A stretch of 64,000 nucleotides of DNA from positions 21,515-85,514 of the forward strand of contig PGYQ01000002.1 in the NCBI GenBank assembly GCA_002839745.1, given 5' to 3'. Source of the stretch: Candidatus Kuenenbacteria bacterium HGW-Kuenenbacteria-1 (GTDB lineage: Bacteria > Patescibacteriota > Patescibacteriia > UBA2591 > PGYQ01). Position numbers and translations under genes: made by a program. The notes below the pieces were generated by a model. That model was not told where the DNA came from, made no database searches, and worked only from the letters and a program-made list of their open reading frames with translations. Shown here piece by piece: positions 7,395 to 53,516 of this stretch. How positions within the stretch are numbered: position 1 is the stretch's first letter; every line of letters starts with the position of its first letter.

Positions 7395-9329
7395 ATGAAA
7401 AATATATTTGAACAACTTATAGATTTATTAAAAAAAGACGAGCGACTTGTTTCGCAAGACGGTATTCTTTTGAAAAATCAAACACAGGAATTGGCGCGCA
7501 AGAATGATCCGACGCTCTTAAAACTTTTGCTTTCCGATAAAACGATAAAACAACACTTCTTTTTTGAAATAGAAAAAACGCTGATTTTTGATAAAGAAAA
7601 ATTTATCCGTTTTGTTTCCAACAAACAATTTTTGCCGGATTCTTATACCGCTTTCAAAAACAAAATCGGTTTAACTGCTAACGATGAATATGTGAGTGAA
7701 AACAAAGAAGTGGTTTTGGCGTGGCCTTATAAAGATTGTGTTTTGGAAGGCGGAATGACTAAAGAAGACCAAAAGCGCGACGAGATTTTTTATAACGAAA
7801 CACTTGCGCCGGACGACATTAATCGCTTATTGGATGCCAAAGTTTTTACCAATTTCAAACGAATAGATAAAAAAGGCGAACACAAACTGAACGGCTTCAA
7901 TCGCGATGAAAAAGGCACAATTAAAGACAATTTAATTATCAAAGGCAATAACCTGCTCGCCCTTGCCTCGCTCAAAAAAGAATTCGCCGGAAAAGTGAAA
8001 CTTATTTACATTGATCCGCCATACAATACCGGCAATGATGGATTTAAATACAATGATTCATTCAATCATTCCTCGTGGCTTGTTTTTATAAAGAATAGAT
8101 TAGAGATAGCAAAAATATTGTTATCTAATGATGGTGTTATTTTTATACATTGCGATAATAACGAGCAGGCATACCTAAAAGTAATGATGGATGAAATTTT
8201 TGATAGGGATAATTTTATTGACATAATAACGGTTGTTAATAATCCAAGGGGACGAGATTATGGTGGCATTGCTAAAATGCACGAATTTATAAATGTATAT
8301 GCAAAATCATCTGATTATAAATTATATAGATTAGAAGAGCCAAATAAAGAATTTCCTTTTGCTGATAATATTAGCGGTTTTGAAATAAGGGAATTAAGAA
8401 ATAGAAATGTTAAATTTAACGATACAAATCGTCCAAACCTAGTTTATCCATTTTTTGTTAATTCTAAAAAAGAAGATAAAAATGGGTTTTTTGATATTGG
8501 TTTAGAACAAAAGACTGGGTGGGTAAAGGTTATGCCGGCTAAATCACAAGGTATTCAAACTGTTTGGCGGTGGGGCAGAGAAAAGTCAGCAAAAGAATTA
8601 AATATAAATATTTGTGGTAAACAAATGCAAAATGGTGGTTGGCAAATTGTTGAAAAATATCGCGAAAAAACAACAATGGCGAGGTCTGTTTGGTGGGATA
8701 AAAATGTAAATTCTGAAAGAGGAACGCTACATCTCAAAGAAATGTTTGGGAGTAAGTTATTTGATTATCCAAAACCAGAGGAAACACTACACAGAATTAT
8801 TGAGATGGCGACAAGACAGAATGATCTTGTTTTAGATTTTTTTGCTGGCTCGGGTACGACTTTAGCGGTGGCACACAAAACCGGACGACAATATATTGGT
8901 ATTGAGCAAATGGATTATATCCACGATTTGCCGGAAACGCGGCTCAAGAAAGTGATTGCCGGCGAGCAGGGTGGAATTTCCGAAGCCATCGGCTGGAAAG
9001 GCGGCGGGGATTTTGGCTATATGGAACTTGCTAAATGGAACGAAAAATGGATAGAAAAAATTGAAAAAGCAAAAACAGGCGAAGAGCTTTCCAAACTTTG
9101 GGGTGAGATGAAAGAAACCGCCTTTTTGAGCTACAAGGTAGATCCGAAAACGATTGACGCAAACGCCAAAGATTTTGCGGATTTGAGTGCCGCTGATCAA
9201 AAGAAGTTTTTAATTGAGTGCTTAGATAAAAACCAGCTCTATATCAATTTAAGCGAAATTGAGGATAAAGAGTACGAAGTGAGCAAGGAAGATAAAGCAC
9301 TCAATAAAAACTTCTATAACGGCAAATAA
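7395..9329 (+). CDS. mod: Type III restriction-modification DNA methyltransferase (Mod), beta-class N6-adenine methylase
   Basis: DPPY motif IV (IYIDPPYNTGNDG) precedes a central variable region, followed by motif I (DFFAGSGTT). Sits directly upstream of res. Confidence 0.8.
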   Translation: MKNIFEQLIDLLKKDERLVSQDGILLKNQTQELARKNDPTLLKLLLSDKTIKQHFFFEIEKTLIFDKEKFIRFVSNKQFLPDSYTAFKNKIGLTANDEYVSENKEVVLAWPYKDCVLEGGMTKEDQKRDEIFYNETLAPDDINRLLDAKVFTNFKRIDKKGEHKLNGFNRDEKGTIKDNLIIKGNNLLALASLKKEFAGKVKLIYIDPPYNTGNDGFKYNDSFNHSSWLVFIKNRLEIAKILLSNDGVIFIHCDNNEQAYLKVMMDEIFDRDNFIDIITVVNNPRGRDYGGIAKMHEFINVYAKSSDYKLYRLEEPNKEFPFADNISGFEIRELRNRNVKFNDTNRPNLVYPFFVNSKKEDKNGFFDIGLEQKTGWVKVMPAKSQGIQTVWRWGREKSAKELNINICGKQMQNGGWQIVEKYREKTTMARSVWWDKNVNSERGTLHLKEMFGSKLFDYPKPEETLHRIIEMATRQNDLVLDFFAGSGTTLAVAHKTGRQYIGIEQMDYIHDLPETRLKKVIAGEQGGISEAIGWKGGGDFGYMELAKWNEKWIEKIEKAKTGEELSKLWGEMKETAFLSYKVDPKTIDANAKDFADLSAADQKKFLIECLDKNQLYINLSEIEDKEYEVSKEDKALNKNFYNGK

Positions 9330-9331
9330 TT

Positions 9332-12001
9332 ATGTTATACGACGAATTTAACTCATATAAAAACTTTGCCGGCGCTGATGTTTTCAAAAACAAAGCGACT
9401 GAAAAAACGGATATTTTGAAAAATCTCAATCCGGCTTTTCCAGCGCGCGAATATCAAAAAGAAGCGTTGGGGCGATTTTATTATTATTGCGAAGAATATC
9501 ATCAAAAACTCAAACCAATTCACTTGATGTTTAATATGGCGACCGGCTCGGGCAAGACGCTCATAATGGCCGCTAATCTTTTGTATTTTTATCAAAAAGG
9601 TTATCGCAATTTTATTTTCTTTACTCGTCTTGGCAATATTATTCAAAAAACTAAAGCCAATTTTCTTGATCCAAATTCAAAAAAATATCTGTTTGCCGAC
9701 AAAATTATGCTAGGCGGACAGGAAATAAAAATCAAAGAATATAATAATTTTGAAGGAGTAAATGATGACGATATAAACATTATTTTTTCTACAACCGCTC
9801 TTTTGCATTCTCGCTTTAATTTCGCTCGCGAAAATGTTTTAACTTATGAAGATTTTACAGATAAAAAAATTGTTTTGATTGCGGATGAAGCGCACAACCT
9901 ATCTGCGGAAACAAATAATAAAATAAGTAAAACCGAAGAAGAAGACCGTCGAAACTGGGAGAATACAGTAGTGCGGATTTTGAACGCCAACAGCCAAAAA
10001 GAAAATGTCCTTTTGGAATTTACAGCAACGGCTCGTTTAGAACAGGAATATCCGGAAATTTTAGAAAAATATAAAGATAAAGCGATTTATCGTTATGATC
10101 TGAAAGAATATCGCTTGGACGGATTTTCAAAAGATGTACGAACTTTGCAAATCAACGCGCCAACTATTGAACGCGCTCTCTCGGCAGTGATAATTTCTCA
10201 ATATCGCCGAAAAGTAGCAGAAAAGTATAAAATCGCTTTGAAACCAGTGGTAATGTTTAAAGCAAATAGAGTCAGTATTCCAAAAGAAGGAATATCAAAA
10301 GAACACAATCCACAGATTGTCGTTTCAAACATTTTTAAAGAATCTTTTCATAAACTTATTTCTAAACTCGGCGAAAAACACCTAACACAACAAACAGCAA
10401 TTAAAGATGCGACATTACAAAAAGCATTTCAATTTTTCAATGAGCAAAAAATTTCTTTGGCAGATTTAGTGGCAGAAATTAAAAGCGATTTTGCGCCGGA
10501 AAAATGTTTGACAGTTGATGAATATAAAGATTTAGAGCAAAAACAAATTTTACTTAATTCGTTGGAAGATCAAAACAATGAAATCCGCGCTATTTTCGCA
10601 ACAGAAAAATTGAATGAGGGCTGGGATGTTTTAAATCTTTTTGATATTGTCAGGCTCTATAATAGCCGTGACGTCAAAAACAATAAACCGGGTAAAACAA
10701 CTGTGCAAGAGGCGCAACTTATCGGGCGAGGTGCAAGATATTATCCATTCACACTCGGCGACTTTACAGACGCATACAGGCGAAAATTTGATACCGACAC
10801 ACAAAACGAACTTCGGATTTTGGAACAGCTTTATTATCACAGCGTAACGAATCCCCGTTATATTCAAGAATTGGAAAGTGTTCTGGTTCGTGAAGGTATT
10901 ATGCCGTCACGCACAGTGCAAAAAGAGATTAAGATCAAAAGTGATTTTAAAAACAGCGATTTTTGGAATAAAGGTTTTATTTTCTTAAATGCTCGCAAAG
11001 AAAATTTAGGCAAGAATGTTTTCGCACTCTCGGACGCTAAAGCAGAATTTGACCACAACGCTGAAATAAACATCTTTCAACTATCAACGCGAGAAGCGAT
11101 AGAAAAAGATTTATTTGTTGCGGGTGCTGGCGCCGGAGTAAATGCAAAAATAGAAATTCTGGATTATAAAATCGCTGATTTGGGAACACATATTGTCCGC
11201 ACCGCTTTGGCGAAAATACCAGCCGGACGATTTGATAAATTAAAAAAAATATTTGGCAATATAGAATCCATAAAAGATTTTATTTTAAATGAAAAATATC
11301 TTGGAGGAATAAAAATTAAAGTGAGAGGTAAGAGCGAGCAAGTAGAAGATCTTTTGCAGATTGAAAAATTAAGTATTGCCGGATTTGTGATAGATAAAGT
11401 GTTAGAAATCGCCGGCAAAGAAAAAAAGGAATACTACGGAACAAAGGAATTTAAAGCTCATTTGATCCAAAAAATATTTGAAAATGACAAGGTATTGCAA
11501 TTGGATAGCGAAAGTTCACGAGCGCAAAATATGCGAGATTTTGATTTTTCTTCTCGGGATTGGTTTGCTCAAAACGAAATCTGGGGAACAAGCGAGGAAG
11601 AATCATTTTTGCGTTTTATTGATGAGTCAATAACAAAGTTAAAGAAAAAATATCAAGACATTGCATTACTTCGCAATGAACAATTTTTCAAAATTTATAA
11701 TTTTGATAATGGAGAGCCATTTTATCCAGATTTCGTTTTGTTTTTAACTGAAAAGGAAACAAAACAAGAAATTATATATCAAATTTTTGTTGAGCCAAAA
11801 GGAGATCATCTTGTATTATATGACGAATGGAAACAGGAATTTTTACTTAAGATAGAAAAAAATTACACTATTGATTTAAAACTAGAAAATAAAAATTTTC
11901 GCTTGATCGGATTGCCATTTTTTAATGAGGGTCAAGTAAATAGTGCTTTGCGTGAAAAATTTGAAGAAGTTTTTAAAAAACAATTTTTAGATATAAGCTA
12001 A
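9332..12001 (+). CDS. res: Type III restriction enzyme Res subunit (SF2 helicase-nuclease)
   Basis: Helicase motif I (MATGSGKT), motif II (IADEAHNL), 889 aa, start 3 nt after the mod stop. Confidence 0.8.
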   Translation: MLYDEFNSYKNFAGADVFKNKATEKTDILKNLNPAFPAREYQKEALGRFYYYCEEYHQKLKPIHLMFNMATGSGKTLIMAANLLYFYQKGYRNFIFFTRLGNIIQKTKANFLDPNSKKYLFADKIMLGGQEIKIKEYNNFEGVNDDDINIIFSTTALLHSRFNFARENVLTYEDFTDKKIVLIADEAHNLSAETNNKISKTEEEDRRNWENTVVRILNANSQKENVLLEFTATARLEQEYPEILEKYKDKAIYRYDLKEYRLDGFSKDVRTLQINAPTIERALSAVIISQYRRKVAEKYKIALKPVVMFKANRVSIPKEGISKEHNPQIVVSNIFKESFHKLISKLGEKHLTQQTAIKDATLQKAFQFFNEQKISLADLVAEIKSDFAPEKCLTVDEYKDLEQKQILLNSLEDQNNEIRAIFATEKLNEGWDVLNLFDIVRLYNSRDVKNNKPGKTTVQEAQLIGRGARYYPFTLGDFTDAYRRKFDTDTQNELRILEQLYYHSVTNPRYIQELESVLVREGIMPSRTVQKEIKIKSDFKNSDFWNKGFIFLNARKENLGKNVFALSDAKAEFDHNAEINIFQLSTREAIEKDLFVAGAGAGVNAKIEILDYKIADLGTHIVRTALAKIPAGRFDKLKKIFGNIESIKDFILNEKYLGGIKIKVRGKSEQVEDLLQIEKLSIAGFVIDKVLEIAGKEKKEYYGTKEFKAHLIQKIFENDKVLQLDSESSRAQNMRDFDFSSRDWFAQNEIWGTSEEESFLRFIDESITKLKKKYQDIALLRNEQFFKIYNFDNGEPFYPDFVLFLTEKETKQEIIYQIFVEPKGDHLVLYDEWKQEFLLKIEKNYTIDLKLENKNFRLIGLPFFNEGQVNSALREKFEEVFKKQFLDIS

Positions 12002-38875: not shown

Positions 38876-41206
38876 TTATAAATTAGATGAATAAGATAAA
38901 GATTTTATATAATTTTCCATAAATTCCCAATCAGGTTTTTCATTTTTTGATGGGAGTTTTATAATCCTTTCTTTTAATCTTGTTTGACTAGCTTTTATTC
39001 CATAATTATATCGATATTGTTCCATATTTAAAATTGTTGTTAAAAATAAACCAATATATTTATTCAACTCAAATTTTGGTATTAATTTTTCTACATGATC
39101 ACTTGCTGAAAATCTTTTTTCTTGAAATGAACAATATCCTATAACAGCACTATCAATAGTTAAAATGTTCCCTTCTTCTGTAAAAAAATCATAAAAACCT
39201 CTCACTCCATTATTAGTTGCTTGTGTAGTAATAAAAGGATATTCTCCTTTTCCATATTCTTCTAAATCTAAAATGGAAGTTGTTTTACTTCCAGTAATTT
39301 CAAACAAATCTATTAAATTAAAATTTTTCCAATTTTTTATATTTAATTTAATATTTTCATTTTTTGAAATACTAGATTTTAAAATATTTTTATTAATAAA
39401 AATATTATTTGCTATTTCAAAGGCTAAATAATTACGAACATCTTTCTCAAAATCCTCTTTTGAAATATTTGAATAATCCGTCTCCATATAAGCTTCGGCA
39501 CACCATTCGTCGTTTGCTTTTACGACTTTATTTACACTAAGCCCTGCAATATTTTCGTGATTTTGAAAATTTACTATCCATTCTTTTTTTATTTTATTTT
39601 TAAAATTTTCAAATAAATCAATTCTTCCTTTATTTTTTCTTTTTACAAAACCATCGTTTTTATAATATCCAAAATAAGTTTTCTTTTCTGCAGGATGAGG
39701 TCTCTTTGCTGTAAAAACCATAATACAAGAAACAACATTTACTTTTGAATTAAAAAATAATTCATCTGGCATTGAAAAAACTGCTTCCAGAGTATGCTTC
39801 TCTAAAACTTTTTCTTTCCATTCATAAACTTTTCCTGTTTGAGCTAATGCACTTTGCATCGGAACAATTGCAACACATTTTCCTCCTTGTTCTAAACAAT
39901 CCAAATTATTTAAAATAAATTCAAATTCATCTATATCATTTTTTTTATCTGATTTATAAGGAGGATTGAGCAAGCCGACTGTTGGTTTAGAATTTTTAAC
40001 TTGTTTAATAATTTTTTCATCAAAACAACTTCCGTGAAAAATATTTGTTTTTCCATCTTGATGTATAAACATATTTGAACAAGCAAGAGCAAAAATATCT
40101 GCTTGATATTCAACACCAATTAATTGTTTTGTTTTTATTTCTTTTTCTTTTTCTTTATCACCTTTTGCATCTTTAATCATTAAATTCATAGATGACACAA
40201 GAAAACCACCAGTTCCAGTGCAATTATCATAAACAATACTATCTTTATTTACTTCAACAATTTCTGTCATAAATTCTGTGATATGCGGTGGAGTCAAAAC
40301 TATTCCTAAACCTTTATCACTATTTGCATATCGTAAAAATTCTACATAAAGTTGCCCAAGCACATCAAGATATTTATGATTTTTTATAAAATCTTTTATA
40401 TTTTCATTTATGTCTGTAATTATTTCAAGCAAAACATTGTGCTTATTTGAAAGACTTGTATCTGTTTTTATAAAAGAAAATTTTTGATCTAAAATAGCAA
40501 GTTTTTTTTCTCCAATTTTTCCGTTTTCAAATTCATTTCTAACAGTGGTTAATAAAAATTCTGATAATTGTTTTGGGTTAGTATAAGTTTTATATCCATC
40601 TTCAAAAGATTTATTTTCCAGAGCAATTAAAACACAAGAAAGTAATAATGCTCGATCGCTTTCTTTAACTTTATGCAAATGTAAATTATCATTAAGTTTT
40701 TTTGAAAAATCTAAAAGATTATTAAAATCTTGCCGAAACTTTTCAGGACTTTTTATATAACCTTCTAAATAATCTTTCGCTAATAATAATTTATTTGAAA
40801 AAATTTCAACAGAATTTTTTTCTCCTTTCATTTGTAAAAAATGTGAGACTTTTAATTCTTTAATATCAGCACCACTAACCGCAATTGAAATCACATCATA
40901 ATCTTTTGCTAAATAAGATGAATATAACAAAACTCCATCAACAGCATAATCTTTTGCTTCTTTTTTTGTTTCACTTTGATGTTTTAAAATATCAAATTTA
41001 CATTCAACAACAATTAAAAGATCTGAATTATTTTTGTACTGAATAATAAATTCCGGAAAACCTTTTCCGTTTCCACTTTTAGAGGCAGTATTTAATAATT
41101 TTTGAATTTTCAAATTTTTAGAAGATTGTTCTTCCAAAATAATATCATCCGAATATTTTTTAAAATGGTCTCTAACAATATTTTCTGTATCTCTTTCGTT
41201 TTTCAT
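38876..41206 (-). CDS. single-chain Type IIG-like restriction-modification enzyme: N-terminal PD-(D/E)xK nuclease, gamma-class N6-adenine methyltransferase, C-terminal HsdS-like target recognition domain
   Basis: DLLIVVECKFD nuclease-like motif near the N-terminus. NPPY methylase motif (LLNPPYKSD). The C-terminal about 190 aa resembles a Type I S-subunit target recognition domain (TRD). Confidence 0.6.
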   Translation of the reverse strand: MKNERDTENIVRDHFKKYSDDIILEEQSSKNLKIQKLLNTASKSGNGKGFPEFIIQYKNNSDLLIVVECKFDILKHQSETKKEAKDYAVDGVLLYSSYLAKDYDVISIAVSGADIKELKVSHFLQMKGEKNSVEIFSNKLLLAKDYLEGYIKSPEKFRQDFNNLLDFSKKLNDNLHLHKVKESDRALLLSCVLIALENKSFEDGYKTYTNPKQLSEFLLTTVRNEFENGKIGEKKLAILDQKFSFIKTDTSLSNKHNVLLEIITDINENIKDFIKNHKYLDVLGQLYVEFLRYANSDKGLGIVLTPPHITEFMTEIVEVNKDSIVYDNCTGTGGFLVSSMNLMIKDAKGDKEKEKEIKTKQLIGVEYQADIFALACSNMFIHQDGKTNIFHGSCFDEKIIKQVKNSKPTVGLLNPPYKSDKKNDIDEFEFILNNLDCLEQGGKCVAIVPMQSALAQTGKVYEWKEKVLEKHTLEAVFSMPDELFFNSKVNVVSCIMVFTAKRPHPAEKKTYFGYYKNDGFVKRKNKGRIDLFENFKNKIKKEWIVNFQNHENIAGLSVNKVVKANDEWCAEAYMETDYSNISKEDFEKDVRNYLAFEIANNIFINKNILKSSISKNENIKLNIKNWKNFNLIDLFEITGSKTTSILDLEEYGKGEYPFITTQATNNGVRGFYDFFTEEGNILTIDSAVIGYCSFQEKRFSASDHVEKLIPKFELNKYIGLFLTTILNMEQYRYNYGIKASQTRLKERIIKLPSKNEKPDWEFMENYIKSLSYSSNL

Positions 41207-45137: not shown

Positions 45138-46028
45138 CTAATGATTTAATAATATTGGTGCGACAACATCATTATTTTCCACTGGTTTTTTGATGCATTG
45201 ATAACCTGCATCATGAAACCATTGATCATTTGGATAATTATAATGTTCATCATGATTATTTTTATTTGAAGTTTTAAAATTAGCGCATAATTCATATGTA
45301 TCTTCTGAAATTATTTTATATTCAACTTTTTCTTTTGTTTTTGGATTTCGTATTTCATTCTCGCTTTGAATAAATCCACCTAATAATAATTCTTCAAAAT
45401 TTTCTGGCAATTTCTTTTTAGAAAAATAATAAGAATTTATCGCTCTTTTAATATTAAAAATTTTTTCTGCAACCATATAATCTTGTTTTTTATTTCTAGT
45501 TTCTTGTGGCGATTCAACAAAAAAAATGCTACTAATTAGCGTTGCTATAATAATTAACAATGCGCCATAAAAATAAATTTGAGAAATTTTACTTTTCGTT
45601 TTTTCAACGATTTTCCGTTTAATATCATAAAAATAATAAGAAAAAACAATTCCTGAAATAATAATGGCTGTTATGGTTTTCAAAATAAATTTAATAGATA
45701 ATTCACCATTTAAAAAATTAAAAATCAATGAAATTAAATAACCAATTATTACCACCGAAGAAGCAAACAAAATAAAATAGGTTAACCATTTTCTAATGCC
45801 AGAATTTTTATCTAACAAACCTAAAAATAAATTTTTATTAATTTGCCAAGTCATAATAAAAAAAATTGGCACGCAGACAATAATTGCTGAAATGGCAAGT
45901 TTAAGAGCATCTATATCGTATTCGCTATTAAAACTTTCAGTTATATCAACAATATTTTTATTAATAATTTGAAAAATAATTATTCCGATTGATGTAGCCG
46001 TAAAACCTAAAGCCACTAAAGACAACAT
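45138..46028 (-). CDS. hypothetical polytopic membrane protein with Cys-containing C-terminal soluble domain
   Basis: ORF with multiple TM helices. Confidence 0.3.
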   Translation of the reverse strand: MLSLVALGFTATSIGIIIFQIINKNIVDITESFNSEYDIDALKLAISAIIVCVPIFFIMTWQINKNLFLGLLDKNSGIRKWLTYFILFASSVVIIGYLISLIFNFLNGELSIKFILKTITAIIISGIVFSYYFYDIKRKIVEKTKSKISQIYFYGALLIIIATLISSIFFVESPQETRNKKQDYMVAEKIFNIKRAINSYYFSKKKLPENFEELLLGGFIQSENEIRNPKTKEKVEYKIISEDTYELCANFKTSNKNNHDEHYNYPNDQWFHDAGYQCIKKPVENNDVVAPILLNH

Positions 46029-46155: not shown

Positions 46156-49100
46156 TTATTTTATTTTATATTCTTTTCTATCATAAAATTCTTCTTGTTT
46201 ACCTTCATGCCATTGTTGTATTGGTCTAATATAACCAGTAACTCGGGAATATACTTCACAATTTTTATTACATTGCGGACACTTAAAATGTTCTCCTGCA
46301 ATATAACCATGGTCAGGACAAACACTGAAAGTTGGAGTAATGGTAAAATATGGCAAATGATAATTTTCAGCAATTCGTTTAACTAATTGCTTAGTTGCTT
46401 CAACTGATGGCATTTTTTCTCCAATAAATCCATGAAAAACCGTTCCTCCTGAATATTTACATTGTAATTCATCTTGAAAATCTAAAGCTTCAAAAATATC
46501 ATCTGTATAATTTACTGGCAAATGGCTAGAATTGGTATAATAAAAAGCTTTTTCTCCTGCAGTAATTATTTTTGGATATTTTTTTTTGTCAATTTTAGCC
46601 AAACGATAAGAAGTTCCTTCAGCAGGGACTGCTTCTAAATTGTAAATATTTCCTGTTTCATTTTGAATTTCTTTCAATTTTTCTCGCATAAAATCTAAAA
46701 TTTCTAAAGCAAATTCTCTCCCCTCTTTACTGGCTATGTCTTTATTTTTGCCTAAAAAATTTAAACAAGCCTCATTAATTCCCAAAGGTCCAATGGTAGA
46801 AAAATGATGATCTAAATTTCCTAAATATCTTTTAGTATAAGGAAATAATCCATTATTTAAATTATGAGTAACTACTTTTCTTTTAATTTCTAAAGATTCT
46901 TTTGCTAAATCCATTTGTTTGGCTAATCGATCAAAAAAATCTTTTTTATCTTTTGCTAAATAACCAATGCGAGGCATATTAATAGTCACAACTCCCACCG
47001 AACCAGTTGATTCGCCAGAACCAAAAAGTCCACCTGTCTTTGCTCTTAATTGATTAAGATTCATTTGTAATCTACAACACATTGATCGAACATCGGTTGG
47101 TTTTAATTCACTATTTATAAAATTTTGGAAATATGGTATTCCATATTTGGCTGTCATTTCAAAAAGTAAATTTGTATTTGAAGTATCCCAATTAAAATCT
47201 TTAGTAATATTATATGTAGGAATTGGAAATGTAAAAACCCTCCCTTTATTATCCCCTTCTGTGGCTACTTCTATAAAAGCCCTATTTATCATATCCATTT
47301 CTTTTTGATAATCCTCATAAGTAGTTTCTTGTAATTTGCCACCAATAATTACTGGATCGTTTTTTAAATCTTCCGGCACAGTCCAATCAAAGGTTAAATT
47401 AGTAAATGGCGTATTCCCTGTTATAAAAGTTTTTCCATTTCTTCTTGCAATAAAAGTGCCATTTAAAGTAGTTGGACACCAAACTTTTCCTTTGTATTTT
47501 TTCTTTGAAATTTGAGTTATTGAAGTTATATTATTTCTAATAATATTTATAACGTAAACGCCATTTTCTCTTTGTTTAATGGTTGTTCCATAATTAGACA
47601 AAACGCATAATTCTTGTAAATCATTTTTATTTTTTTCATCTTTTGTAAATATTCTTATCCTACCTTTAAACTCTCGATGACCATCACCTTTAATATAAGT
47701 ATGAATAAAAAGTTGGATTTGATCAGCGGAAAGTGTTTTAATTAAAGAAGGTATTTCTTTTTTATTTATTATTTTTCGAATTTTTTTTGAAGATTCTTGA
47801 TTTAATCTAAATCTTAAAATTATTCCACTATTTAAAAATCCACCATTTTTTTTCATTTCATCCCATTTAAAATTCAATTTTTTTAAACAGGTTCTTATTT
47901 CATTACAATTAGCTATATTTTTTTCTGATTGAAATATATAAACTCGATCTCTATCACCATCTGAAAAACTTCCTTCAGAAACAAACCAAGCAATTATTTT
48001 TAATAAATTTTCGTCTATTTCTTTTTTTGAAACAGTTATAGATGAATTGGGTATTAAAATTGGCGTTTTAAATTTTAAAGCTTTTTCAATTTCTAATAAT
48101 TCAAACTCGCCATTATTAAATATTTTTCTGACAATTTTGTGACCAGGTGTTATTAATTGATCTTGTGTTCTATTTTTTAAATTAAATAAATAACCATTAT
48201 AATCATAAGAACAAACTCTTTCTGGTTTTAAATATTCAATTATTTTTTTTTCTAAATTAAAAGTTGCTATCTTATCTTCTTTTTTAATCTCTAAATATTT
48301 TTTCCATCCATTATCTGTTAATGCTTCTGTGTCTTCACTAACACATTGAGTCCCCCATCTAGAAGGTGCGGCAATATTAAACATAAATTTTTGAATATTT
48401 TGTTTTACTTCTTTATAAGTTAAATGATCCGCTCGCACAAATGGAGCTAAATAAGTATCAAAAGAACTAAAGGCTTGAGCCCCAGCCCATTCATTTTGTA
48501 AAATTCCCCAAAAATTTACCATTTGTCCCAAAACTGTTTCTAAATGTTTGGGTGGCGCGCATTCAATTCGATTTTCAACACCTCCCAATCCTTGCAAAAG
48601 TAATTGTCGTAAACTCCAACCAGCACAATAAGCATTTAAACCCATTGATAAATCATGAAGATGTATATCTCCCTCTTTATGAGCTTGAGCAATTTTTGCT
48701 GGATAAACATTTTCTAAAAGATAATTAGCAATAACGGACCCAGAAATATGAAGCATCAATCCTCCAAACGAATAACCAATATTGGCATTTTCTTTTACTC
48801 TCCAATCTTCTTGTTTTAAATAACCATCCATAATTTTTTCAATATCCATCATTACTCCGCCCATTTCACGCACTTTTTCTTGCTGTTTTCTATATAAAAT
48901 ATAAGCCTTTGCCACTTCAACCAAACCAGCTTTAATTAAAACCTTTTCAACAATGTCTTGGATTTCTTCAACAGTGGGAATATTTTTTGAATCAAATTGA
49001 TATTCAAGAATGGTTAATACCTTATCAGATAATTTTTTTGACTTTTTTCCATCTTTTCCTTCAATAGCAACAATGGCCTTATAAATGGCTTGAGTAATTT

Positions 49101-49176
49101 TTTCTTGATCAAATTCAACCATTCTTCCATTCCGCTTCCGAATTTTTTGTATTTTAAATTTTTTTATTTGTTTCAT
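46156..49176 (-). CDS. nrdD: anaerobic ribonucleoside-triphosphate reductase (class III, NrdD) interrupted by an intein
   Basis: N-terminal ATP-cone. C-terminal Zn ribbon (CPDHG...CPQCNKNC) and glycyl-radical motif (SRVTGYIRP). Extein junctions are RWGTQ|C and N|TPFTN. Confidence 0.8.
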   Translation of the reverse strand: MKQIKKFKIQKIRKRNGRMVEFDQEKITQAIYKAIVAIEGKDGKKSKKLSDKVLTILEYQFDSKNIPTVEEIQDIVEKVLIKAGLVEVAKAYILYRKQQEKVREMGGVMMDIEKIMDGYLKQEDWRVKENANIGYSFGGLMLHISGSVIANYLLENVYPAKIAQAHKEGDIHLHDLSMGLNAYCAGWSLRQLLLQGLGGVENRIECAPPKHLETVLGQMVNFWGILQNEWAGAQAFSSFDTYLAPFVRADHLTYKEVKQNIQKFMFNIAAPSRWGTQCVSEDTEALTDNGWKKYLEIKKEDKIATFNLEKKIIEYLKPERVCSYDYNGYLFNLKNRTQDQLITPGHKIVRKIFNNGEFELLEIEKALKFKTPILIPNSSITVSKKEIDENLLKIIAWFVSEGSFSDGDRDRVYIFQSEKNIANCNEIRTCLKKLNFKWDEMKKNGGFLNSGIILRFRLNQESSKKIRKIINKKEIPSLIKTLSADQIQLFIHTYIKGDGHREFKGRIRIFTKDEKNKNDLQELCVLSNYGTTIKQRENGVYVINIIRNNITSITQISKKKYKGKVWCPTTLNGTFIARRNGKTFITGNTPFTNLTFDWTVPEDLKNDPVIIGGKLQETTYEDYQKEMDMINRAFIEVATEGDNKGRVFTFPIPTYNITKDFNWDTSNTNLLFEMTAKYGIPYFQNFINSELKPTDVRSMCCRLQMNLNQLRAKTGGLFGSGESTGSVGVVTINMPRIGYLAKDKKDFFDRLAKQMDLAKESLEIKRKVVTHNLNNGLFPYTKRYLGNLDHHFSTIGPLGINEACLNFLGKNKDIASKEGREFALEILDFMREKLKEIQNETGNIYNLEAVPAEGTSYRLAKIDKKKYPKIITAGEKAFYYTNSSHLPVNYTDDIFEALDFQDELQCKYSGGTVFHGFIGEKMPSVEATKQLVKRIAENYHLPYFTITPTFSVCPDHGYIAGEHFKCPQCNKNCEVYSRVTGYIRPIQQWHEGKQEEFYDRKEYKIK
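47413..48345 (-). mobile_element. intein (311 aa) with a LAGLIDADG-type homing endonuclease domain inside nrdD
   Basis: Starts with Cys (CVSEDTEALTDNG) and ends ...ITGN, followed by extein Thr. Internal KIIAWFVSEGSFSDGD is a LAGLIDADG-like motif. Confidence 0.65.
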
Positions 49177-49556: not shown

Positions 49557-51373
<1,817 letters not shown>

Positions 51374-51921: not shown

Positions 51922-51997
51922 GGGCGCATAGCTCAGCTGGTAGAGCATTTCTCTGATAAGGAAAAGGTCCATGGTTCGAGTCCATGTGCGCCCACCA
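51922..51997 (+). tRNA. tRNA-Ile (anticodon GAT) in the spacer after 16S, CCA encoded
   Basis: GGGCGCA acceptor, D-arm TAGCTCAGCTGGTAGAGCA, anticodon loop CTGATAA, T-arm CATGG-TTCGAGT-CCATG. Confidence 0.8.
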
Positions 51998-52050: not shown

Positions 52051-53516
52051 ATGCAAGAAACTAGGGTTAATCTTAAACATTTATTAGAAGATATTAGGGA
52101 TGGTTATTCTCTTACAGTTGAAGAAATTATTTTAACTGAATTAATAGCTAATAGTCTTGATTCAAAAGCTTCTAGAATTGAACTTTTTACAGAACCAGAA
52201 AAAATAGTTTTACTATTTGCGACAATGGTAACGGAATGAAACGACAAGCTTTAAAAAATTATCATAATATTGCAGCTACAACTAAAATTCGTGGAAAAGG
52301 AATTGGTTTTGCTGGCATTGGCGCTAAATTATCTCTCTTAATTGCTAAATCGGTAATCACTGAAACTAAAGGCGGTTATGGTTCTCATTGTGCTACAACA
52401 TGGCATTTAATGAATGCTGATAGAGCTCCTTGGAAATTTATTCCTTCTCAAGGAAAAGTAAAAACTTCACGAGGGACTGCAATTACTATTGAATTTTCTG
52501 ACTTTCAATCCTTTCTTTTAAATTCTGATTTTATTTATAAAAATATTAAAAAACATTTTTATCCTTTATTGCATTCCGTATTTTTTGATTCTATCTTGAA
52601 ATATGTTTATAAAAAAGAAATAGAATTTTTTATAAATAATGAAAAAATTGAAATAAAAAACTCTAATTTAAAAGAAGCTTTAAAAACTTTCAAAGTTACT
52701 CTTGGCAAAGAAGAAAAAAAATTAGCTGGTTTTGGTTTTTTAATTAAATCAAATGAAAATTTTTCTTTAAAAAATTTTGGAATCAGTATTTCCACTTACG
52801 GCAAAGTAATTAAACAAGGTTGGGATTGGTTAGGAATTTTCCCAAGGCTTGCTTTTCAAATTTATGGATTAATAGAAATTCCAGCTCTTTCTGAAATTTT
52901 AACAACAAACAAAAATGATTTTTTAAAAGATGCCACAAGTTTAAAAAAATATTATTGTTATCGCAAAGCAATTCAAGAAGCAATTTTACCAATTCTTTCT
53001 GAATTTGGAGAAGAAATAATTTCCTTTGAAAAAAATTTCAAAAAACTAAAACCTTTAGAAAAAGAAATTGAGAAAATGTTGGAAGATGTTTTAGAAAATT
53101 TTCCGGAATTAACACCTCTTGTTGGAATTAAAAAAAATAAAAAAGGAACCCATTTAAAATTAGAAGGTCCTTTAGTAGGTTTTATTGAAAAAGAAACAGA
53201 AGAAACAAAAAATACAGAAACAAAAAAACAAAAAAACACTAAAACATTGAAACAAGAAAATAAAGATAAAAAGAAAAAAGCGCCAACATTAACAATTGGT
53301 TTTGAAGAAAATCCTTCAAAAATTAGTTTAGCTCGAATGATTGAAAATACTATTTGGATTAATACTAATCATCCAGCTTATCAAAAAGCCAAACAAGAAA
53401 ATTTAGAACCATATCATATTTTTCTTTCTATTGCTTGGACTTTGTCGCATTTTATTGAAGAAAATCATTCGCCACAAGAATTTATTAGCCAATTTCTTAT
53501 TTCATGGAGTAAATAG
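52051..53516 (+). CDS. GHKL-superfamily ATPase (HATPase_c-type, MORC/Hsp90-like); frame changes at about 52199-52211
   Basis: N-box ELIANSLDS in the first ORF. In a different frame the G1 box ICDNGNGM continues into ORF 52236-53516, with G2-like GKGIGFAGIGAKLSL. Confidence 0.55.

Follow-up and report, generated by a model that had tools for sequence, protein, structure and literature searches.

The nrdD gene of Candidatus Kuenenbacteria bacterium HGW-Kuenenbacteria-1 encodes a class III ribonucleoside-triphosphate reductase and raises a straightforward question: what is the block of 311 amino acids that interrupts the enzyme, and does it still behave as a mobile element? The gene is situated on a stretch of 64,000 nucleotides (contig PGYQ01000002.1, positions 21,515 to 85,514; hereafter the window, in whose own numbering all positions are given), in which a minus-strand open reading frame (46156..49176) codes, according to the open reading frame list and the Pfam and NCBIfam matches, for a precursor of 1006 amino acids plus stop codon that consists of the reductase and one intein. 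An initial annotation had described the block as a homing-endonuclease intein of the LAGLIDADG type, and the fold predicted with AlphaFold2 (AF2), the Foldseek matches, the Pfam family LAGLIDADG_3 and the occurrence of relatives in unrelated host proteins agree with this assignment. We consider it likely, on the basis of the sequence data assembled here, that the block represents a bona fide, bifunctional nrdD intein that is probably still active and combines canonical class 1 protein splicing with homing.

The window protein was aligned with MAFFT to 16 and then to 119 NrdD homologues, so that the larger data set of 120 sequences comprises the window protein and its 119 best homologues. In every homologue without the insert, the alignment gap spans exactly residues 278-588 of the precursor (nucleotides 47413-48345, minus strand), an agreement that chance could not plausibly produce. 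This comparison of the exteins with intein-free NrdD proteins, a check proposed in the initial annotation, confirms to the residue the boundaries given there, which translation of the open reading frame reproduces exactly: an insert of 311 amino acids that starts with Cys, ends with Asn and is placed between RWGTQ and TPFTN. The closest insert-free homologues (P0032-P0035; 693-704 amino acids) are 89-90% identical to the window protein, and their junctions (SRWGTQ-TPFTN in P0032, SRWGAQ-TPFTN in P0033 and SRWGTQ-SPFTN in P0034) differ only at the -2 or the +1 position. An insert at this site is present in three of the 120 sequences (the window protein, P0036 and P0146). The flanking residues are invariant in 119-120 of the 120 proteins, both upstream (S, R, W, G and Q, each found in all 120) and downstream (P, F and N) of the insertion point, and 116 of them have Thr or Ser at +1.

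When the insert is deleted, the window protein aligns to the NrdD enzyme of T. maritima (tmNrdD) as one continuous domain (148 bits), whereas the alignment breaks into two pieces when the insert is kept. The continuous alignment pairs R273, Q277, T589 and F591 of the window protein with R221, Q224, S225 and Y227 of tmNrdD, respectively. Loop 2 of tmNrdD (residues 217-228) passes the signal of the specificity effector on to the substrate; Arg221 and Gln224 are directed at the substrate, and its base is stacked against Tyr227, a position occupied by Phe in other NrdDs (PMC4493059). Judged by this correspondence, the intein interrupts the substrate-recognition loop between the predicted substrate-contacting Gln and the predicted base-stacking Phe. 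The first half of loop 2, SRWGTQ (48346-48363), thereby terminates the N-extein (amino acids 1-277; 48346..49176, minus strand), which is delimited by the alignments to tmNrdD and to the intein-free homologues, while the second half, TPFTN (47398-47412), opens the C-extein (amino acids 589-1006 plus stop codon; 46156..47412, minus strand), whose first residue is the +1 nucleophile Thr589. Because the intein lies inside loop 2, we infer that enzyme function requires splicing and that the unspliced precursor is inactive.

Two further positions in NrdD proteins are occupied by inteins. P0130 and P0144 carry an unrelated intein of 508 amino acids (Ser1 to a terminal His-Asn, followed by Thr) after GSGES, a site that corresponds to amino acid 723 of the window protein (nucleotide ~47008), and P0039 carries an unrelated intein of 408 amino acids (Cys1 to a terminal His-Asn, followed by Thr) after YSGG (amino acid 911; nucleotide ~46444). 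The inteins at both sites possess the canonical His-Asn end and belong to families other than that of the window intein. Together with the loop 2 site, there are therefore at least three insertion points in this NrdD clade.

The complete intein (Cys1 to Asn311; 47413..48345, minus strand) is defined by the exact alignment gap, the AF2 model, the Foldseek matches and the hidden Markov model (HMM) of its family. Its AF2 model, built with 32 family sequences, has a pLDDT of 95.3 and a pTM of 0.92 and consists of two beta-rich lobes (intein residues 1-105 and 272-311) arranged around a helix-and-strand domain, in which residues 112-269 form a double alpha-beta-beta-alpha-beta-beta unit as seen in the double LAGLIDADG fold. 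In a Foldseek search of the PDB, this model recovered as best matches the endonuclease-bearing TliVMA and PhoVMA inteins (E 6e-16 to 2e-14), along with PI-PkoII (E 1e-12), PI-SceI (E 8e-12) and I-DmoI (E ~1e-6; target TM 0.65). The HINT domain is thus split into an N-terminal lobe (intein residues 1-105; 48031..48345), which is traced by the family conservation and a HINT-only profile, and a C-terminal lobe (residues 272-311; 47413..47532), which is traced by an alignment to the KlbA intein and by the family counts. Between them lies the LAGLIDADG homing-endonuclease domain (residues ~106-271; 47533..48030), delimited by Pfam, AF2, Foldseek and an alignment to PI-PkoII; all three parts are on the minus strand.

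The LAGLIDADG-like block KIIAWFVSEGSFSDGD singled out in the initial annotation is present at intein residues 116-131 (nucleotides 47953-48000). We assign motif 1, LLKIIAWFVSEGS (LLKIIAWFVSE124-G; 47968-48006, minus strand), with the catalytic residue Glu124, and a second motif that the initial annotation had not listed, IQLFIHTYIKGDG (IQLFIHTYIKGD221-G; 47680-47718, minus strand), with the catalytic residue Asp221. PI-PkoII aligns motif to motif with the window intein, LLKIIAWFVSEG being paired with LLGYYVSEG, and FIHTYIKGDG with FLEGYFIGDG; there are therefore two LAGLIDADG motifs with an intact pair of catalytic residues, Glu124 and Asp221. In a Pfam scan limited to the insert, LAGLIDADG_3 exceeds its cut-off (24.9 versus 22.5 bits). 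A search of the PDB with the single sequence of the insert yielded only a weak match to PI-PkoII (E 3.4e-4), so that a family profile was required to reveal further relationships. A profile restricted to the HINT part matched the entries 6zgq (E 2.8e-11) and 2jmz (E 1.5e-8), and also 7cfv and other inteins, while a profile of the C-terminal 37 residues, which cover blocks F and G, found nothing meaningful in the PDB.

The family to which the window intein belongs is very large. A profile search of 1.84 billion cluster representatives (50%-identity clusters) gave 33,150 matches at E <=1e-3 and 12,642 at E <=1e-30, and relatives of the insert reside in at least eight unrelated host protein families, including a DNA methylase, ribosomal protein S12, an integrase, a peptidase, an AAA ATPase and ThyX. 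In addition, 176 phage records contain a relative of the insert. A bacterium of the Candidate Phyla Radiation (CPR) joins the hosts of a mostly unannotated intein family that is represented by about 12,600 clusters at 50% identity (E <=1e-30), many of them from phages. Some family members are mini-inteins of 143-162 amino acids without an endonuclease. For residue counts, we assembled 228 complete copies from the 145 top representatives of the profile search, and the acidic residue of each of the two LAGLIDADG motifs is present in 217 of these copies.

Many of the profile matches are proteins of 2,000-3,700 amino acids with several intein copies. Such multi-copy giants of unknown origin occur among the representatives P0151-P0295, for example P0152 (2602 amino acids with 11 matched stretches), P0162 (3308 amino acids) and P0282 (3718 amino acids).

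All residues expected at the splice junctions are present in the window intein: Cys1, Thr66-x-x-His69, Asn311 and the +1 residue Thr589. Block A, CVSEDTEALTDNG (48307-48345), and block B, LITPGHKIV (48130-48156; Thr66 at B:7, His69 at B:10, Lys70 at B:11 and Ile71 at B:12), are located in the N-terminal lobe, while the C-terminal lobe contains block F, KGKVWCPTTLNGTFIARRNG (47434-47493; Trp289-Cys290 at F:3-F:4 and Gly296 at F:13), and block G, KTFITGN (Thr309, Gly310 and Asn311), all on the minus strand. Across the 228 family copies, position 1 is always Cys and B:10 always His; B:7 is Thr in 212 copies, G:7 is Asn in 224, and the +1 residue is Ser (140), Thr (69) or Cys (18) in 227 of them. 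The likely course of splicing can be outlined from these residues. Upon translation of the 1006-amino-acid precursor, the 311 residues that split loop 2 would fold as a HINT domain, in which Thr66 and His69 (block B) would activate Cys1 to form a thioester with Gln277. Thr589 would then take over the N-extein, Asn311 would cyclise and release the intein, and an O-to-N shift would rebuild the continuous SRWGTQ-TPFTN loop. In this scheme, Cys290 at the central F:4 position, usually an Asp, would coordinate both splice junctions, and Lys70 at B:11 would stand in for the helper histidines, by analogy with the split intein AceL NrdHF; a contribution of Arg301 and Arg302 is also possible. Most family copies have a basic B:11 residue (Arg in 117 and Lys in 68 copies, hence Arg or Lys in 185 of 228), and Arg301 and Arg302 are conserved in 205 and 204 copies, respectively.

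The initial annotation had drawn attention to Gly in the penultimate position, where His is usual. The penultimate His at G:6, a frequent but not obligatory residue, is indeed absent from the window intein, which has Gly310 instead; this is the rule of the family, with Gly in 216 and His in four of the 228 copies, and not an oddity of the window copy. The penultimate Gly is therefore the family norm and no defect.

Homing would proceed through the LAGLIDADG domain, which, by way of Glu124 and Asp221, would cut intein-free nrdD at the coding sequence for SRWGxQ-[TS]PFxN, after which repair would copy the intein into the cut allele. Such homing would account for the occupation of one and the same site in bacterial and archaeal genes and for its polymorphism among close relatives. 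The closest relatives of the insert (60-80% identity) are all found at the same nrdD site: P0036 (80% identical; locus L005), P0007 from a metagenome-assembled genome (MAG) of the Nanoarchaeota (71% over the part present), P0001 (65%), P0146 (63%), whose contig also carries an archaeal-type family B DNA polymerase, and P0012, annotated as Lamprocystis (60%). The intein at this site in P0002, from a MAG of the archaeal Methanophagales, is 43% identical, and CPR bacteria are also among the same-site hosts. Members of this family thus occupy the substrate/specificity loop of bacterial as well as archaeal NrdD proteins. Relatives in other host proteins reach at most 34% identity over the whole intein. 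This distribution, with the closest relatives at the same site and distant ones in other hosts, is the pattern that site-specific homing is predicted to leave in the sequences.

Presence and absence of the intein can be seen side by side within one metagenome. Sample ERZ1292638 contains both an intein-free nrdD gene (L004, 7436-9520), which reads AGATGGGGAACACAG up to the insertion point and AGCCCATTTACCAAC directly after it, and an intein-containing one (L005, 5167-8181). The two loci share the FtsZ-nrdD gene order, with FtsZ upstream in both; their extein DNA is 89.0% identical, and each is 87.3-87.4% identical to the window exteins. L004 and L005 represent a presence/absence polymorphism that arose from precise loss or from reinvasion, and they provide a natural pair for studying homing. 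We calculated the ratio of nonsynonymous to synonymous substitution rates (dN/dS) between the window and L005. It is 0.09-0.11 for the exteins (dS 0.53-0.62), 0.14 for the HINT N-terminal lobe, 0.28 for the endonuclease, 0.18 for the HINT C-terminal lobe and 0.215 for the whole intein (dS 0.61). These substitution patterns indicate purifying selection on every part of the intein, which has diverged in step with its host gene in the window and L005 lineages.

Several observations weigh against the view that the window intein is an active, canonical class 1 element. Over the whole protein, LAGLIDADG_3 reaches 21.0 bits and so falls short of its cut-off of 22.5, and NCBIfam intein_Nterm reaches 14 bits against a cut-off of 24.5. 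The curated intein models thus barely detect the intein and therefore cannot be used as evidence here. Both helper histidines for Asn cyclisation are absent, the window intein having Gly310 at G:6 and Gly296 at F:13 (the latter position is Gly in 140 and His in 39 family copies). Cys290, His69 and Thr309 make up the catalytic triad of class 3 inteins, so that the first splicing step may follow another route. The dN/dS value of the endonuclease speaks for constraint and not for activity, and both splicing and DNA cleavage of the window protein are events that we infer.

Among the alternatives, one concerns the endonuclease. The intein might be a resident in decay that still splices, as NrdD needs it to, but whose endonuclease no longer cuts, so that it is inherited only vertically. 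Intein and exteins have equal dS in the comparison of the window with L005, which fits joint vertical inheritance and not a recent invasion, the endonuclease evolves faster than the splicing lobes (0.28 versus 0.14-0.18), mini-inteins that have no endonuclease do exist within the family, and the GC content of the intein (0.235; GC3 0.10) has drifted below that of the exteins (0.30-0.32). Against this stand the intact catalytic acidic residues and Gly residues of both LAGLIDADG motifs, a dN/dS value for the endonuclease that is well below 1, and the confidence with which this part of the protein is modelled (means of 10-residue blocks between pLDDT 82 and 98); moreover, a presence/absence polymorphism at about 89% identity in one sample is of the kind that an active homing cycle generates. 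We therefore regard decay of the endonuclease as unlikely and retain the view of an intein that both splices and homes. The low GC content fits a weaker constraint in an AT-rich genome. Low GC as the mark of a recent foreign arrival was considered and rejected, given that the dS values of intein and exteins are equal and that a comparable GC content is seen in weakly constrained genes of this genome.

The second alternative concerns the chemistry of splicing. The intein could splice by a class-3-like route or a relay, as proven for the related AceL NrdHF intein, the NrdHF-1-1 split intein whose structure (6ZGQ) is the best solved-structure sequence match of the HINT profile (E 2.8e-11) and which is the single mini-intein in the 50 best fold matches of the window intein. 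Class 3 inteins use a Cys-His-Thr triad (PMC7664689). Like the window intein, AceL NrdHF has a Cys at F:4 and a Thr-Gly-Asn end; B:11 is likewise basic, and both helper histidines are missing. Its block B is PNHRM-like (VSPNHRMIY versus VTPNHRML in relatives of the window intein). The correspondence in the C-terminal half was derived from the residue numbers of the published protein (C124 and T144-G145-N146) and from the alignment to KlbA, not from a direct alignment, because the profile of blocks F and G had no meaningful match. Kinship with AceL NrdHF and the Thr-Gly-Asn end therefore give the family a class-3-like Cys/His/Thr triad on top of Cys1. The family counts can be read in the same direction: F:4 is Cys in 214 of the 228 copies, G:5 is Thr in 104 and Ser in 56 (together 160), the +1 residue is Ser or Thr in 209, and 31 copies combine Cys1 with the full W-C-T triplet of class 3 inteins and a penultimate Gly.

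In class 3 inteins a nucleophile at position 1 is by definition not needed and is usually absent (PMC2807308; PMC5222942), whereas Cys1 is invariant in all 228 copies of the family, over many hosts, which implies, as far as conservation can tell, that Cys1 is required. Natural variation at F:4 points the same way: this residue is Asp (seven copies), Ser (six) or Ala (one) in 14 otherwise normal copies, and neither the Asp nor the Ala of eight of these could form a (thio)ester; such variation argues against an obligate Cys nucleophile at F:4. Of the W-C-T triplet the window intein has two of three residues, with Ile71 in place of Trp at B:12 next to Cys290 and Thr309; B:12 varies widely in the family (Met 79, Trp 33, Phe 30, Val 30, Leu 25 and Ile 14 of 228). 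The canonical class 3 structures, Msm and Mch DnaB1, went undetected when the family profile was compared with the PDB. The invariant Cys1, Ile at B:12 and the natural occurrence of Asp or Ala at F:4 therefore favour the class 1 route, and we judge class-3-like or relay splicing to be quite improbable.

An equally doubtful, more specific proposal would make the inteins with the signature Cys1...W/Y-Cys(F:4)...Thr-Gly-Asn the contiguous, endonuclease-bearing sister group of AceL NrdHF, splicing through a hybrid relay from Cys1 via Cys290 to Thr+1. If such a relay were true, the window intein would be a living intermediate between class 1 and class 3, and the class 3 mechanism would have arisen more than once. 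A disulfide between Cys1 and Cys290 could then form under oxidising conditions and might hold back maturation of the O2-sensitive NrdD until anoxia, much as the F:4 Cys of M. smegmatis DnaBi1 serves as a redox trap (PMC6195587). Whichever route is used, the family offers a natural series (Cys, Asp or Ser at F:4; Trp, Met, Phe, Val or Ile at B:12) for relating the class 1 and class 3 mechanisms.

The notion that the insert might be a lineage-specific NrdD domain, an alternative raised in the initial annotation and not borne out, or an assembly chimera instead of a splicing element is exceedingly improbable and can be dismissed: although the curated intein HMMs stay under their thresholds, the insert is bounded exactly by Cys and Asn-Thr within an invariant motif and has a HINT plus LAGLIDADG fold, 114 of the 120 aligned NrdD sequences lack an insert of at least 60 residues at any site, relatives in unrelated host proteins and phages rule out a lineage-specific domain, and the same 1006-amino-acid sequence is found on four independently assembled contigs, so that the insert is no assembly artefact.

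The host protein itself is readily recognized as a class III reductase. Pfam NRDD matches the 1006-amino-acid protein with 635 bits over two stretches, the second of which starts at residue 588, and is accompanied by an N-terminal ATP-cone; NCBIfam NF006126 reaches 1093 bits (cut-off 548). The hallmarks of NrdD, namely the catalytic domain, the RVTGY motif, the Zn ribbon and the active-site Cys184, were all found. On the minus strand, the N-extein contains the ATP-cone (amino acids 11-100 by Pfam; 48877-49146) and the conserved Cys184, which lies opposite Cys125 of tmNrdD, in the motif NAYCAGW (48616-48636). The C-extein contains the MCCR motif (S-M-C-C-R; 47071-47085), the Zn ribbon CPDH...CPQC (46270-46320) and the glycyl-radical motif RVTGY (46231-46245). 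MCCR, a variant of the SCCR motif, has been described for NrdDh4, a subgroup of the NrdDs that resemble the T. maritima enzyme, and where the radical cysteine of this subclass lies is a matter of debate (PMC4493059); the host NrdD matches the NrdDh4 subgroup in this motif. The protein is 100% identical to the NCBI entry 'ribonucleoside triphosphate reductase [Candidatus Kuenenbacteria bacterium HGW-Kuenenbacteria-1]', whose name refers to the reductase only. The mature enzyme has 695 and not 1006 amino acids, and the insert merits annotation as an intein. Expected masses are 116 kDa for the precursor, 80 kDa for ligated NrdD and 36 kDa for the free intein.

No gene for the activase NrdG adjoins nrdD, as the initial annotation had correctly stated, and this can be widened to the window: a scan of all open reading frames of at least 90 amino acids in the 64 kb found none with the CxxxCxxC motif of radical S-adenosylmethionine (SAM) enzymes. 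Likewise, a radical-SAM Pfam domain is absent within 10 kb of nrdD both on the window contig and on three related contigs, and an unlinked nrdG seems to be normal for the clade. Another ribonucleotide reductase was not found within the 64-kb window either, where the larger open reading frames represent restriction-modification, purine-synthesis and other genes, not reductases, and it is plausible that nrdD is an essential gene. The window encodes a Type III restriction-modification pair (mod, 7395-9329; res, 9332-12001; both plus strand) and a 776-amino-acid fusion of N6_Mtase and Methylase_S domains (38876-41206, minus strand). DNA methylases often host relatives of the window intein; the methylase genes of the window carry none.

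A bacterial 16S rRNA gene (49558-51373, plus strand) adjoins nrdD. It measures 1816 nucleotides against a model of 1533 positions and contains two insertions without open reading frames, one of ~98 nucleotides near model position 80 and one of ~174 nucleotides near position 458; rRNA insertions are reported as a CPR trait (PMC11270868). A gene for tRNA-Ile(GAT) follows downstream of the 16S gene (51922-51997). No 23S rRNA gene was found in the remaining 12 kb of the window after tRNA-Ile, and the rRNA genes therefore appear to be unlinked. The nrdD-16S region is flanked by genes for a DUF5671 membrane protein (45138-46028, minus strand) and for a 426-amino-acid protein without a Pfam match (52236-53516, plus strand).

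How does the window intein compare with inteins that have been characterized? The TliVMA and PhoVMA inteins (7QSU and 7QST), PI-PkoII (2CW7) and PI-SceI (1VDE) resemble it in combining a HINT with a LAGLIDADG domain (query TM 0.6-0.68). They differ from the window intein by their canonical penultimate His and a sequence identity of only 9-16%, and PI-SceI (454 amino acids) and PI-PkoII (537 amino acids) are much larger and possess extra DNA-recognition regions. The class 2 intein KlbA of Methanocaldococcus jannaschii (2JMZ), the second-best PDB sequence match (E 1.5e-8), can be aligned from block B through block F; this alignment places Cys290 of the window intein opposite the Asp at F:4 and is the basis for its assignment to that position. 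KlbA lacks a penultimate His as well and has Ser at G:6 (PMC4031507). Its Ala1, its Asp at F:4 and its Cys+1, which attacks the N-terminal junction directly, contrast with Cys1, Cys at F:4 and Thr+1 in the window intein.

The intein of gp51 from mycobacteriophage Bethlehem belongs to the same sequence family as the window intein. The family HMM recognizes it with 154 bits (E 2e-49) in an alignment that covers almost the whole model, and it possesses Cys1, a TxxH block B, a Cys at F:4 ('EVWC'), a penultimate Gly ('LTGN' followed by S), a LAGLIDADG domain and a basic residue at B:11 (Arg), all within ~317 amino acids. Bethlehem gp51 has been found to splice completely; its G316H variant accumulates precursor, and its endonuclease is toxic in E. 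coli (Kelley et al. 2016, PMC5050341). It differs from the window intein by its low sequence identity (~20-25%), its origin from an actinobacteriophage, its host protein, a recombination directionality factor (RDF) / metallophosphoesterase, and its insertion site.

AceL NrdHF likewise resides in a ribonucleotide reductase, although in the class Ib beta subunit (an NrdHF fusion) and not in a class III NrdD. It is a proven class 3 intein with the triplet M-C-T that ends in Thr144-Gly145-Asn146 and whose first nucleophile is the F:4 residue Cys124 (Hoffmann et al. 2020, PMC7891396). Its Arg69 at B:11 hydrogen-bonds the carbonyl of the C-terminal scissile bond, the G145H substitution kills splicing, and the intein splices within minutes (PMC7891396). 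AceL NrdHF has Ala at position 1 and is naturally split, with a free-standing GIY-YIG endonuclease gene between its halves; the window intein, in contrast, is contiguous, has the family-invariant Cys1 and contains an internal LAGLIDADG domain. The family is of interest for intein chemistry and protein engineering because its invariant Cys1 occurs together with the Cys-His-Thr triad and the Thr-Gly-Asn end of a fast class 3 intein.

The window intein, which is well preserved and lies in a loop critical for enzyme function, overturns no current understanding. Ribonucleotide reductases are classic intein hosts, and the anaerobic enzyme of M. jannaschii contains two inteins. A putative intein has been reported in nrdD of Clostridium phage c-st and of phage D-1873 (PMC3653736). 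Inteins in ribonucleotide reductase genes, including nrdD, have thus long been known, and the window intein extends a known family, of which it is an ordinary representative, to a new host lineage.

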